A stretch of 4,273 bases of DNA from Qubevirus faecium: sequence record FJ539134.1, one strand, 5' to 3'. The notes under the pieces are model-generated. The model worked only from the letters and a program-made list of their open reading frames with translations, was not told the origin of the DNA and ran no database searches. Both the position numbers and the translations under genes were made by a program. Positions 1-4,169 of the stretch are shown piece after piece. Position 1 is the stretch's first letter, and each line of letters begins with the position of its first letter.

Positions 1-51
1 GGGGTAGGCCCCGTAAGGGGCCTGCCTTCACCGCACTACAGAGGAGAATCT
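1..51 (+). other. 5' UTR with terminal hairpin (stem 3-12 / 17-26, GUAA tetraloop 13-16); genome starts GGGG
   Basis: Direct pairing check: 12c-17g, 11c-18g, 10c-19g, 9c-20g, 8g-21c, 7g-22c, 6a-23t, 5u-24g (wobble), 4g-25c, 3g-26c. A 5'-terminal GGG(G) plus stable hairpin is typical of leviviruses. Confidence 0.7.
41..46 (+). promoter_or_regulatory. Shine-Dalgarno (GAGGAG) for the maturation protein gene
   Basis: GAGGAG lies 5 nt upstream of the ATG at 52-54. Confidence 0.7.
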
Positions 52-1404
52 ATGCCAACCCTTCCGAGAGGTCTTCGCTTCGGATCGAATGGCGAGGTCT
101 TAAATGACTTCGAGGCGCTCTGGTTTCCAGAGCGCCATACCGTCGATCTGAGCAATGGGACCTGCAAGCTCACTGGTTATATCACTAACCTGCCTGGCTA
201 CAGTAATATATTCCCGAATAAGGGAGTCACTGTTGCTCGTACGCCGTACAGAAGTACAGTGCCTGTTAACCATCTTGGTTACCGGCCCGTTACGACTGTT
301 GAGTACATTCCCGACGGCACCTACGTGCGCCTAGATGGGCACGTAAAGTTCGAAGGGGGCTTGGTTAATGGGTCAGTTGATCTCACGAATTACGTGATCT
401 CGTTAGCTGCTCAGGGTGGCTTCGATTACCAATCGGTAATCGGACCTAGGTTCTCTGCGCACTTCTCCGCGTTCAGCACCAAATATGGTGTCTTACTCGG
501 GGAAGGGAGAGAGACTCTTAAGTATCTTCTCCTGCTGCTTCGCAGAATGCGTGAAGGGTACCGCGCCGTAAGGCGTGGCGATCTCAAGCGCCTCAGGAAT
601 GTGATCTCTACGTTCGAGCCGACATCCTCTAAAGGGAGGAAGGCAAGATCTGAGTTCTCACAAACCTATCGCGACAAGCTTACCGGTAACAAGGTTGAAG
701 TTAAACCAAGTGAGGGTAAGTGGAATAGCAGTAGTGCGAGTGACCTGTGGTTAGAGTTCCGTTATGGGCTTATGCCGTTGTTCTACGACATTCAGTCCGT
801 GATGGAAGACTTCATGCGTGTCCATAAGAAGATCGCGAAAATACAGCGATTTTCTGCAGGGCACGGTAAGCTGGAGACGGTTAGTTCGCGGTTTTACCCG
901 GACGTCCACTTCGCTCTTGAGGTCACCGCAGTGTTACAGCGGCGTCATCGTTGGGGTGTCATATACCAGGATACTGGTTCTTATGCCACTTTTAACAATG
1001 GTCGTCTAGTCCCGGTGAAGGACTGGAAGACAGCGGCGTTTGCACTCCTTAATCCTGCCGAAGTTGCATGGGAGGTAACTCCTTACAGCTTCGTTGTGGA
1101 TTGGTTTGTAAATGTTGGGGATATGCTTGAGCAGATGGGCCAGCTTTATAGGCACGTCGATGTCGTTGACGGTTTCGACCGGAAGGACATAAAACTCAAG
1201 TCCGTATCCGTACGCGTCTTGACTGGCGACAGTGCGCACGTAGCTAAGTTTACTCTACGTCAAGCACGTTTGTTGCATAGTTATTATTCGCGCGTGCATA
1301 CCGTTGCGTTTCCGCAAATTTCACCACAACTCGATACTGAGATACGTAGCGTTAAGCACGTGATCGATAGTATCGCATTATTAACCCAGCGCGTTAAGCG
1401 CTGA
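52..1404 (+). CDS. A2: Maturation protein A2 (pilus attachment; in Qbeta-like phages also the lysis protein that inhibits MurA)
   Basis: 450-aa ORF, ATG start with upstream SD, TGA stop at 1402-1404. N-terminus MPTLPRGLRFG and many blocks (LWLEFRYGLMPLFYDI, TPYSFVVDWF, LLTQRVKR at the C-terminus) match my recollection of Qbeta A2. First gene in the genome, as expected. Confidence 0.93.
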   Translation: MPTLPRGLRFGSNGEVLNDFEALWFPERHTVDLSNGTCKLTGYITNLPGYSNIFPNKGVTVARTPYRSTVPVNHLGYRPVTTVEYIPDGTYVRLDGHVKFEGGLVNGSVDLTNYVISLAAQGGFDYQSVIGPRFSAHFSAFSTKYGVLLGEGRETLKYLLLLLRRMREGYRAVRRGDLKRLRNVISTFEPTSSKGRKARSEFSQTYRDKLTGNKVEVKPSEGKWNSSSASDLWLEFRYGLMPLFYDIQSVMEDFMRVHKKIAKIQRFSAGHGKLETVSSRFYPDVHFALEVTAVLQRRHRWGVIYQDTGSYATFNNGRLVPVKDWKTAAFALLNPAEVAWEVTPYSFVVDWFVNVGDMLEQMGQLYRHVDVVDGFDRKDIKLKSVSVRVLTGDSAHVAKFTLRQARLLHSYYSRVHTVAFPQISPQLDTEIRSVKHVIDSIALLTQRVKR

Positions 1405-1423
1405 ACTTTGGGTCAATTTGATC

Positions 1424-1822
1424 ATGGCAAAATTAAATCAGGTAACTCTTTCCAAAATCGGAAAGAATGGGGATCAGACTTTAACTCTTACACCGCGCGG
1501 GGTAAACCCGACGAACGGCGTGGCGTCGCTGTCTGAAGCTGGAGCTGTTCCGGCTTTGGAAAAGCGCGTGACTGTGTCAGTTGCGCAGCCTTCCCGTAAC
1601 CGTAAGAACTTTAAAGTTCAGATTAAACTCCAAAACCCGACTGCATGCACGAAGGACGCATGTGACCCATCTGTGACGCGATCTGCTTTCGCAGACGTAA
1701 CGCTGTCGTTCACGTCGTATTCTACCGACGAAGAACGTGCGCTAATTCGCACTGAGTTGGCAGCTCTGTTGCAGGACAATCTGATCATCGATGCAATCGA
1801 TAATCTGAATCCTGCTTACTGA
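1424..1822 (+). CDS. cp: Major coat protein
   Basis: ATG at 1424 gives MAKLNQVTL...NPAY, 132 codons plus UGA stop. Near-identical in blocks to Qbeta coat as I recall it (PRGVNPTNGVASLS, PALEKRVTVSV, QPSRNRKN, QNPTAC...CDPSVTR, STDEERA, RTELAALL, IDAI, LNPAY), including the two Cys residues. The track's 1418 start is a TTG two codons upstream; ATG 1424 is preferred. Confidence 0.95.
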   Translation: MAKLNQVTLSKIGKNGDQTLTLTPRGVNPTNGVASLSEAGAVPALEKRVTVSVAQPSRNRKNFKVQIKLQNPTACTKDACDPSVTRSAFADVTLSFTSYSTDEERALIRTELAALLQDNLIIDAIDNLNPAY

Positions 1823-2419
1823 GCAGCGTTACTGGTAGCCTCGTCCGGCGGTGGGGATAACCCCTCAATGCCAGACGTTCCGGATCTTCCAGACGTCAAA
1901 CCGCCTGACGGAACGGGGCGCTATACGTGCCCCTTCTCCTGTTACCGCCTCGGTAGTATCTACGAGGAGGGTAAGGACGGTTCTCCTGACATCTACGAAA
2001 GGGGAGACGAAGTCTCGGTTACTTTCGATTATGCTCTCGAGGATTTTCTTGGGAACACAAATTGGCGTAACTGGGATCAGCGATTGTCATCATATGACTT
2101 AGCTAATCGTCGTCGTTGCCGTGGCAACGGGTACATTGACTTAGATGCCACTGTGATGCAGTCAGACGAATTCGTTCTGTCTGGCCGTTATCCAGTGCGC
2201 AAGGTCAAGTTTCCCGGCGCTTTCGGCTCCATCAAGTATCTCTTGAACATTCAAGGCGATGCCTGGTTGGACTTATCCGAGGTGACAGCCTACCGTTCCT
2301 ACGGAATGGTTATTGGTTTCTGGACAGACTCTAAGAGCCCGCAGCTACCAACCGATTTCACGCAGTTTAACAGTGCTAATTGCCCTGTACAGACGGTGAT
2401 AATCATACCCTCACTTTAA
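1424..2419 (+). CDS. A1: A1 read-through protein (coat extended by UGA suppression; minor capsid protein)
   Basis: Coat frame continues past UGA to TAA at 2417-2419, 331 residues in all. The extension begins with a Gly-rich linker (SSGGGDNPS), then a Pro-rich segment and blocks matching Qbeta A1 from memory (GTGRYTCPF, LGNTNWR.WD.RLS, CRGNGYIDLDAT, PGAFG, VIGFW, FT.F....CP.Q.VI). Confidence 0.88.
1820..1822 (+). promoter_or_regulatory. Leaky UGA stop codon of the coat gene (programmed read-through site)
   Basis: UGA at 1820-1822 in context UAC-UGA-GCA. The same frame stays open through 1823-1867 (gca gcg tta ctg gta gcc tcg tcc ggc ggt ggg gat aac ccc tca) into the 1868-2419 ORF. Confidence 0.85.
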
Positions 2420-2428
2420 GCAACTTAA

Positions 2429-2433
2429 AGGAG
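2429..2433 (+). promoter_or_regulatory. Shine-Dalgarno (AGGAG) for the replicase gene
   Basis: AAAGGAGA at 2427-2434; AGGAG ends 5 nt before the ATG at 2439. Confidence 0.75.
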
Positions 2434-2434
2434 A

Positions 2435-2454
2435 TAGCATGTCAAAGACAGCTA
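2435..2454 (+). promoter_or_regulatory. Replicase translational operator hairpin (coat-protein binding site): stem UAGC/GCUA + UGUC/GACA, bulged A, AAA loop; contains the replicase AUG
   Basis: Seen directly: 2435-2438 uagc pairs with 2451-2454 gcua; 2439 a is unpaired (bulge, first base of the AUG); 2440-2443 uguc pairs with 2447-2450 gaca; loop 2444-2446 aaa. Same architecture as the Qbeta operator (8-bp stem, bulged A, 3-nt loop) as I recall it. Confidence 0.8.
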
Positions 2455-4169
2455 GTCGCAGAAGAGAAATTACTCAGCTATTGGGTAAGGTCGACATCAA
2501 CTTCGAAGACGACATCCACATGTCTATTGCCAACGACCTCTTTGAGGCCTACGGCATCCCGAAACTTCAGAATGCTGAGGAGTGCATTAACACCGCATTC
2601 CCAAGCCTTGATCAAGGCGCAGACACATTTCGTGTCGAGTATTTGCGCGCTGAGATCTTATCGAAGTTCGACGGGCACCCTCTAGGTACTGATACCGAAA
2701 AGACAGCATGGGAGAAATTCCTGGCTGCTGAAGAGGGTTGTAGACTTACGAACGAACGACTGTCGCAGGTTAAGTACCACGATAATTCCATTTTGTCGTG
2801 GGGCGAGCGTGTAATTCATACTGCTCGCCGAAAAATACTTAAACTAATTGGCGAGTCTGTGCCGTTCGGGGATGTGGCGTTGCGCTGCCGATTTTCTGGC
2901 GGTGCAACGACCTCGGTAAACCGTTTACACGGTCATCCGTCGTGGAAGCATGCCTGTCCGCAGGATGTTACCAAACGCGCATTCAAGTACCTGCAAGCCT
3001 TTAAACGGGCGTGCGGTGACGTTGTAGATTTACGCGTCAACGAGGTGCGCACTTCAAATAAAGCAGTCACTGTTCCGAAGAATAGTAAGACTGATCGCTG
3101 TATCGCCATCGAACCCGGTTGGAATATGTTTTTCCAGCTCGGTGTAGGTGCGGTGCTACGCGATAGGTTGCGTTTATGGAAGATTGACCTTAATGATCAG
3201 TCGACCAACCAACGCCTCGCGCGGGATGGGTCTCTGCTAAATCATTTAGCTACCATAGACTTATCCGCAGCCAGTGATTCGATCAGCTTAAAGCTAGTTG
3301 AATTGCTGCTCCCTCCTGAATGGTATGACCTTCTGACAGATCTCCGATCTGATGAAGGCGTTTTACCTGATGGACGAGTTGTGACCTATGAGAAAATATC
3401 CTCCATGGGAAATGGCTACACTTTCGAGCTTGAGTCGCTTATTTTCGCGGCGCTCGCAAGAAGTGTGTGTGAGTTACTAGAAATCGACCAATCTACTGTT
3501 AGCGTGTACGGGGATGATATAATCATCGACACTCGTGCCGCAGCTCCATTAATGGATGTCTTTGAATACGTTGGGTTCACGCCTAACAAAAAGAAGACGT
3601 TCTGCGATGGACCCTTCCGCGAATCGTGCGGTAAGCACTGGTTCCAAGGGGTAGATGTAACGCCCTTTTACATACGCCGACCAATTCGTTGCCTTGCTGA
3701 TATGATACTGGTTTTAAACAGTATCTACAGGTGGGGCACTGTTGATGGTGTATGGGATCCTAGAGCACTGACCGTGTACGAAAAGTATCTCAAGTTGCTG
3801 CCAAGAAATTGGCGACGCAACCGGATACCAGACGGCTACGGAGACGGAGCTCTCGTCGGATTGGCTACGACGAACCCGTTCGTTATAGTTAAGAATTATT
3901 CAAGACTATACCCGGTATTAGTTGAAGTCCAGAGGGACGTCAAGCGTAGCGAGGTAGGCAGTTATCTATATGCCTTACTCCGCGATCGCGAGACACGTTA
4001 TAGTCCTTTCCTGCGTGACGCAGATAGGACTGGGTTTGATGAAGCGCCGCTAGCTACTAGCCTTCGTCGCAAGACAGGTCGGTACAAAGTGGCGTGGATT
4101 CAGGACAGTGCCTTCATCCGGCCCCCGTATTTCATTACGGGCATTCCCGAGGTGAAGCTTGCAAGCTAG
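2439..4169 (+). CDS. rep: RNA-dependent RNA polymerase (replicase beta subunit)
   Basis: 576-aa ORF, ATG with SD, TAG stop at 4167-4169. YGDD catalytic motif at 3507-3518 (VSVYGDDIIID). Long blocks match Qbeta replicase from memory (CRFSGGATT, NKAVTVPKNSKTDRCIAIEPGWNMFFQLG, LATIDLSAASDSISL, VTYEKISSMGNGYTFELESLIFA, FRESCGKH, GVDVTPFYIR, IPDGYGDGALVG). Confidence 0.96.
   Translation: MSKTASRRREITQLLGKVDINFEDDIHMSIANDLFEAYGIPKLQNAEECINTAFPSLDQGADTFRVEYLRAEILSKFDGHPLGTDTEKTAWEKFLAAEEGCRLTNERLSQVKYHDNSILSWGERVIHTARRKILKLIGESVPFGDVALRCRFSGGATTSVNRLHGHPSWKHACPQDVTKRAFKYLQAFKRACGDVVDLRVNEVRTSNKAVTVPKNSKTDRCIAIEPGWNMFFQLGVGAVLRDRLRLWKIDLNDQSTNQRLARDGSLLNHLATIDLSAASDSISLKLVELLLPPEWYDLLTDLRSDEGVLPDGRVVTYEKISSMGNGYTFELESLIFAALARSVCELLEIDQSTVSVYGDDIIIDTRAAAPLMDVFEYVGFTPNKKKTFCDGPFRESCGKHWFQGVDVTPFYIRRPIRCLADMILVLNSIYRWGTVDGVWDPRALTVYEKYLKLLPRNWRRNRIPDGYGDGALVGLATTNPFVIVKNYSRLYPVLVEVQRDVKRSEVGSYLYALLRDRETRYSPFLRDADRTGFDEAPLATSLRRKTGRYKVAWIQDSAFIRPPYFITGIPEVKLAS

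Follow-up and report, generated by a model that had tools for sequence, protein, structure and literature searches.

A GTG-initiated open reading frame embedded in the A2 gene of an SP-like Qubevirus faecium genome is most likely a chance shadow of A2

The A2 maturation gene of an SP-like allolevivirus contains a 63-codon open reading frame (ORF 818-1009) that is unconserved and no longer than chance would produce. We conclude that this ORF is a non-functional chance open frame, the +1 shadow of A2 (probability roughly 0.93), and that it is presumably not translated. The original prediction had flagged it as a probably spurious candidate for a single-gene lysis protein (Sgl), an assessment supported here by stops in relatives and by a GTG start codon that lacks a usable Shine-Dalgarno (SD) sequence. 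The locus serves as a worked negative example of how easily chance creates, in ssRNA phage genomes, alternative-frame ORFs of 60-100 codons that have a basic head and a hydrophobic tail. Hydropathy alone cannot tell such chance ORFs from real Sgls; what is informative is the combination of frame-specific substitution patterns and control ORFs.

The window, by which we mean the whole 4,273-nt stretch of DNA analysed, comprises the complete genome of an SP-like Allolevivirus of genogroup IV (Qubevirus faecium). Full-length megablast matches include FI strain BR8 (95.1% identity), SP (~92%) and HB-P22 (83.5%), followed at greater distance by HB-P24 and NL95 (80.7%) and FI 4184 (79.2%), while Qβ-type genomes give patchy matches only. 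The gene layout of the window agrees with that of annotated relatives (Table 1). The A2 product matches the Pfam family Phage_mat-A (PF03863, E=6.9e-86) and the Qβ A2 structures 5VLZ/5MNT (E ~1e-118), and is 46% identical to Qβ A2 over its full length. Across 818-1009, A2 is the frame under selection. Two features of the annotation were recorded in passing. The A2 proteins of group IV range from 438 to 450 aa (gene lengths 1317-1353 nt), and the coat ORF in the mechanical ORF list starts at TTG 1418 (MIMAKLNQ...), whereas annotated relatives all use the ATG equivalent to 1424.

Table 1. Coordinates in the window of the genes, the candidate ORF, the control ORFs and the sequence elements discussed in the text.
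Feature	Position	Strand	Details
A2 maturation gene, presumed lysis gene, 450 aa	52-1404	+	annotated maturation protein in all relatives
Coat	1424-1822	+	layout of annotated relatives
A1 read-through product	end 2419	+	layout of annotated relatives
Replicase	2439-4169	+	layout of annotated relatives
Candidate ORF, judged non-coding	818-1009	+	GTG start, 63 sense codons, TAG stop 1007-1009
Upstream +1-frame TGA closing the frame	800-802	+	5 codons between TGA and GTG 818
A2 third positions at risk of a silent +1 stop	834, 873, 882, 918, 924, 960	+	enumeration
Invariant 20-mer CAGCGGCGTCATCGTTGGGG	937-956	+	identical in all group IV genomes, including ORF-broken ones
Predicted conserved RNA domain	928-1048	+	RNAalifold, 7 group IV genomes; spans ORF C-terminal half and stop
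Control alternative-frame ORF, 59 aa	155-334	sense	fairly hydrophobic stretch, KD19 1.56
Control alternative-frame ORF, 83 aa	1851-2102	sense	ORF list
Control alternative-frame ORF, 101 aa	2380-2685	sense	ORF list

The ORF itself is present exactly as the original prediction had described it, as a GTG-initiated frame in A2, 63 aa long, with a basic N-terminus and a hydrophobic tail. It lies in the +1 frame of A2 ((818-52) mod 3 = 1) and translates as (V/M)SIRRSRKYSDFLQGTVSWRRLVRGFTRTSTSLLRSPQCYSGVIVGVSYTRILVLMPLLTMVV, a peptide with 10 K+R against 1 D+E. The hydrophobic C-terminal 22 residues are interrupted by Tyr, Thr and Arg (R52), as had been remarked, and also by P58. Only two in-frame ATGs occur, leaving 8 and 3 codons before the stop; the maximum distance between successive stops in A2's +1 frame is 68 codons. 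Searches of Pfam and PHROGs with the peptide returned no match. With 63 codons and a GTG start the ORF exceeds the length used by Chamakura et al. (2020; PMC7693330) to recognise Sgls (at least 25 codons beginning with ATG, GTG or TTG), yet this is also what chance yields. The features of the ORF would come from A2's own sequence. Its Arg-rich N-terminus would reflect A2 lysine/arginine codons (AAG AAG ATC GCG AAA) read out of frame, and the invariant core of its tail would mirror the A2 motif QRRHRWG...YQDTG, with nucleotides fixed by A2 and probably also by a local RNA fold.

Shuffled sequences give a measure of what chance produces. When the codon order of A2 was shuffled, the longest +1/+2 ORF reached at least 63 aa in 49.5% of shuffles, and synonymous-codon shuffling gave a +1/+2 ORF of that length in 36%; overall, the probability of an alternative-frame ORF of the candidate's length in shuffled A2 is ~0.34-0.50. 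Of genome-wide shuffles covering all three genes, 81% contained an alternative-frame ORF that was 63 aa or longer, and 25% of shuffled genomes had one that was 40 aa or longer and reached a 19-residue Kyte-Doolittle mean of 1.8 or more. The +1 frame is also hydrophobic by composition, with a mean Kyte-Doolittle value of +0.25 versus -0.29 in the A2 frame. By these measures, neither the length nor the hydrophobic tail of ORF 818-1009 is unusual.

Conservation of the open frame across related genomes had been proposed as a check, and stops in close relatives had been named as evidence against the ORF. Such stops were found in HB-P24, NL95 and FI 4184, which belong to the same species at ~79-81% nucleotide identity. 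In a codon-aware alignment of 16 A2 genes, with the homologous +1 frame translated in each, the open frame is shared by BR8, four SP sequences and HB-P22; it is also present in the metagenome contig L020 (MAVO01000006.1), and is confined to relatives with at least 83.5% identity. The sister lineages carry one to three stops (three in HB-P24, two in NL95 and one in FI 4184), and each of five Qβ-type genomes carries one or two. The start is gone as well, the position of the GTG being occupied by GTA in NL95, GCG in FI and ACC or AAC in Qβ-type genomes. By enumeration, 12 of 140 single changes that are silent in A2 kill the ORF, and several have occurred in nature: 873 G>A (CTG>CTA) in HB-P24 and FI, 882 T>A (GTT>GTA) in HB-P24, and at 960 either C>G (GTC>GTG) in HB-P24 or C>A (GTC>GTA) in NL95, each an A2-silent +1 stop. 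NL95 has one extra +1 stop, which is accompanied by an amino-acid change in A2. Since HB-P24, NL95 and FI are cultured, viable members of the same species, the silent knockout has in effect already been done by nature.

Control ORFs in alternative frames persist in a similar way: they remain open in BR8, L020 and SP and decay in HB-P22, HB-P24, NL95 and FI. Most of the controls (155-334, 1851-2102 and 2380-2685) gain stops or lose their start in distant group IV genomes, and two short control ORFs are stop-free in every genome compared. The candidate frame probably remains open in close relatives because substitutions there are too few to close it, and ORF 818-1009 shows no conservation beyond neutral drift; such conservation of start, stop, length and TMD (transmembrane domain) was the argument for an Sgl used for Hubei7/Hubei8. 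The wider sampling relied on the invariant 20-mer, which retrieved the FI and SP reference genomes only in a scan of viral contigs and five loci in a metagenome scan. One of the five, L020, is a true relative, and the other four are short chance matches. The L020 contig (2783 nt) is 93.9% identical to window 12-2725 and carries at one end short inverted matches to window 284-357, which suggests an assembly artefact or a 5'-end snap-back.

In the genomes that keep the frame, substitutions fall as expected if A2 alone is under selection and the +1 frame drifts as its shadow. Because A2 third positions are second positions of the ORF, every A2-silent third-position change alters the +1 peptide. 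In BR8, A2 third positions diverge by 0.109 within the ORF and by 0.114 elsewhere; in SP the corresponding values are 0.203 and 0.184. Across the region, identity in A2 versus the +1 peptide is 98% versus 89% in BR8, 97% versus 78% in SP and 90% versus 70% in HB-P22. All nine differences in L020 fall at A2 third positions; A2 is unchanged (100%) while each difference alters a +1 residue, with replacements that include R>P, G>D, F>S and L>S. Among seven group IV genomes, 16 of the 41 testable codons in the region are invariant, compared with a background of 0.339 (binomial p=0.29).

These patterns bear on the possibility that the ORF is an embedded gene of recent, lineage-specific origin (a second Sgl or a proto-gene) whose 63-aa peptide from GTG 818 would insert into the inner membrane and act in lysis or its timing beside A2. 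Such a gene would account for the L-like size, charge layout and hydropathy of the peptide, and for a frame that is open in 6/6 sampled SP-like/HB-P22 genomes. At a kill fraction of 0.067-0.086 per silent change, the naive neutral survival of the open frame is ~0.14-0.08 over the 28 variable third positions and 0.04-0.02 over all 45 changes, so that the estimate as a whole (~0.02-0.14) is borderline. We do not take this figure as selection, because the ORF was picked post hoc as open and control ORFs survive alike. The N-terminal half (818-927) also evolves at or above the A2-silent background (third-position divergence 0.14-0.41 versus 0.11-0.39 in BR8, L020, SP and HB-P22) and accepts non-conservative replacements. 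Together with the stops in viable sister lineages and the initiation signals described below, these observations make a young gene very unlikely. A few per cent of probability are nevertheless left for a lineage-specific proto-gene, because Sgl genes arise de novo and differ between close relatives, sometimes with no recognisable ribosome-binding site (RBS) or transmembrane domain (TMD) (PMC7693330). For the same reason, neither the weak SD nor the lack of conservation refutes a gene outright.

The original prediction had noted a GTG start with no recognisable SD, and the pairing of positions -20 to -3 with the 3' end of 16S rRNA proved to be at background level: the best energy is -3.3 kcal/mol, which is equalled or bettered by 37% of the ATG/GTG/TTG triplets in the genome. 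Among the real starts, A2 and replicase reach -9.1 and -8.7 kcal/mol, with coat weak at -3.1 kcal/mol. Mean unpaired probability is predicted to be 0.12 in the region of GTG 818 versus 0.70, 0.51 and 0.26 at the three real starts, placing the candidate start in a probably paired segment. ORF 818-1009 lacks the legitimate upstream Shine-Dalgarno sequence that is among the features by which Chamakura et al. (2020) recognise Sgls. The weak SD is counted as supporting evidence only, because it is a prediction and some functional Sgls have no recognisable RBS (PMC7693330). Among the papers listed in a literature search, judged by title and abstract, there was no ribosome-profiling study of RNA phage infection (Qβ, SP).

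Hydropathy did not separate the candidate from genuine lysis proteins. The scale was calibrated on lysis proteins translated from the annotated records of MS2, M, AP205, GA and PP7, whose 19-residue Kyte-Doolittle maxima span 1.68-2.06, compared with 1.83 for the candidate and 1.69 for its SP version. The earlier view of the tail as weak for a transmembrane helix is therefore not upheld, its maximum lying within the range of verified levivirus lysis proteins. The longest run in the tail free of D, E, K and R is 15 residues and weakly hydrophobic. R52 and P58 within the segment count mildly against membrane insertion, although a Lys likewise falls within the hydrophobic stretch of MS2 L. Hydropathy was accordingly dropped as a refutation of the ORF, verified L proteins scoring no higher than the candidate, and a simple additive Hessa-scale sum was rejected as well, having failed to separate MS2 L from the candidate. 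Since the tail is as hydrophobic as those of real L proteins, what counts against the ORF is its evolution and its initiation signals, and the argument does not depend on hydropathy.

Comparison with known lysis genes shows likeness in form and difference in genetic setting. Like the L-type Sgls (MS2 L, 75 aa; GA L, 63 aa; PP7 L, 55 aa; AP205 L, 35 aa), the candidate is small, lies out of frame in a core gene, and has a basic N-terminal part followed by a hydrophobic segment with a 19-residue maximum in their range. The L genes of enterobacterial leviviruses overlap coat and replicase and are translationally coupled to coat (PMC3561173). In contrast, the candidate lies in the middle of A2, has no SD and a start predicted to be paired, lacks conservation among members of its species, bears no sign of selection in its frame and has no family similarity. 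It resembles the Lys protein of phage M (37 aa, within rep, UUG start) in being fully embedded in an alternative frame with a non-ATG start, but fails the SD test by comparison. Another parallel is offered by the candidates of Chamakura et al. (2020): 64/293 lie within mat, and no effect on E. coli was seen for 178 that have a predicted TMD (PMC7693330). Like the non-functional sgl candidates of these metagenomic leviviruses, ORF 818-1009 has at least 25 codons and a hydrophobic segment and lies within mat. Those candidates come from genomes with no known lysis gene, whereas the genus of this phage already has a lysis function assigned to it.

That function has been assigned to the maturation protein. 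MS2 and GA encode lysis proteins, while Qβ and SP encode none that is dedicated (PMC12856241); instead, allolevivirus maturation proteins trigger lysis (PMC3561173, PMC12856241), and A2 of Qβ does so by inhibiting MurA (PMC7693330, PMC10610835, PMC12856241). The A-protein is annotated as involved in lysis in the NL95 and FI records. The gene that hosts the candidate is the SP-type orthologue of Qβ A2, which combines maturation with lysis via MurA, and this correspondence concerns frame 0, not the candidate frame. By homology with Qβ A2, SP-type A2 probably causes lysis, and the lysis function of the genus would then be attributable to A2; the direct demonstration is for Qβ, and we found in the literature no direct test of lysis by SP-type A2. 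One difference between the two proteins is a 31-residue Lys/Arg/Ser-rich insertion in SP-type A2 (residues 189-219, window 616-708) that is absent from Qβ A2.

The tail of the ORF overlies a stretch in which the sequence varies little. The C-terminal half (928-1009) shows A2 third-position divergence below background in SP (1/27), HB-P22 (4/27) and FI (6/27). In HB-P24 and NL95, which have a stop in this section of the frame and count as one independent lineage in the comparison, the divergence matches background. The invariant 20-mer within the C-terminal half encodes A2 residues QRRHRWG and underlies 'SGVIVG' of the +1 peptide, and its segment CGTCATCGT is kept in Qβ-type genomes too. The flanking tail residues of the +1 peptide vary (LLT, LSI, LST).

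A conserved RNA domain is predicted to cover this stretch. Its helices pair 928-934 with 1042-1048, 939-943 with 1033-1037, 946-958 with 987-1000, 965-969 with 974-978, and 1001-1012 with 1020-1031. Across the alignment 98.6% of cells are paired, compared with 29-53% in slid controls, and four pairs show compensatory changes, located in the hairpins 1001-1012/1020-1031 and 965-969/974-978. Support for the fold is moderate, because the structure was derived from the same seven sequences, and such a fold plausibly explains the invariant stretch. Synonymous invariance over 931-981 was also considered as a sign of an overlapping gene and set aside: its core is kept in ORF-broken genomes, it ranks 67th of 1040 windows, and the predicted RNA fold covers it.

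The same stretch is where a shorter product would have to be sought, namely a ~30-aa peptide from the in-frame TTG 917 (MRSPQCYSGVIVGVSYTRILVLMPLLTMVV), with the C-terminal part alone being functional. This peptide would coincide with the stretch of low A2-silent variation in SP, HB-P22 and FI, and known Sgls are as short as 35-37 aa. However, HB-P24 and NL95 show the same invariance at positions 937-956 despite a stop at codon 48 of the frame, and Qβ shows it in part; the TTG itself is gone in FI although the conservation persists there. The modest rank of the invariance signal, the pairing-compatible or compensatory nature of the substitutions in a predicted RNA domain, an SD energy of -3.6 at TTG 917 and the varying tail residues likewise speak against it, and we consider such a peptide extremely improbable.

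A further route to the same residues would be +1 ribosomal frameshifting from A2, which would truncate the protein and give it a different, hydrophobic C-terminus. With 68 open codons in the +1 frame, a shift anywhere in ~803-1006 would add the hydrophobic tail. The frame is nonetheless closed in sister lineages, and the region as a whole shows no excess synonymous constraint, which leaves frameshifting scarcely credible. More broadly, we regard as highly unlikely a nascent membrane-active peptide, whether of 63 aa or of the ~30-aa C-terminal part, that serves as a second lysis or timing gene in SP-like group IV phages and was lost or never gained in HB-P24/NL95 and FI. If the ORF were real, the long-standing view of alloleviviruses as phages with no dedicated lysis gene would be overturned, and a lysis gene would have been caught at birth. 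A chance open frame in the shadow of A2 is the reading that we prefer.

Several minor observations concern other parts of the window and its relatives. Two minus-strand ORFs (751-909 and 1006-1239) overlap the candidate region; translation from the minus strand is not known for ssRNA phages of this type. The strongest synonymous invariance among the seven group IV genomes lies at 4020-4157, the 3' end of replicase, and at 2907-2981, the 3' edge of the replicase binding region M (SP record X07489, 2629-2956), with up to 13/14 testable codons invariant (p ~7e-6). Invariance at both sites is consistent with functional RNA elements within coding sequence. Finally, NL95 (AF059243) differs from HB-P24 at window ~981-992 by a compensated pair of single-base indels within ~10 nt of A2 (GGT TCG TTG CCA CCT TTC in NL95 versus GGT TCG TTC GCC ACC TTC in HB-P24). 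The pair alters three A2 residues (LPP versus FAT in HB-P24) and represents either a true compensated frameshift or a mistake in the older record.
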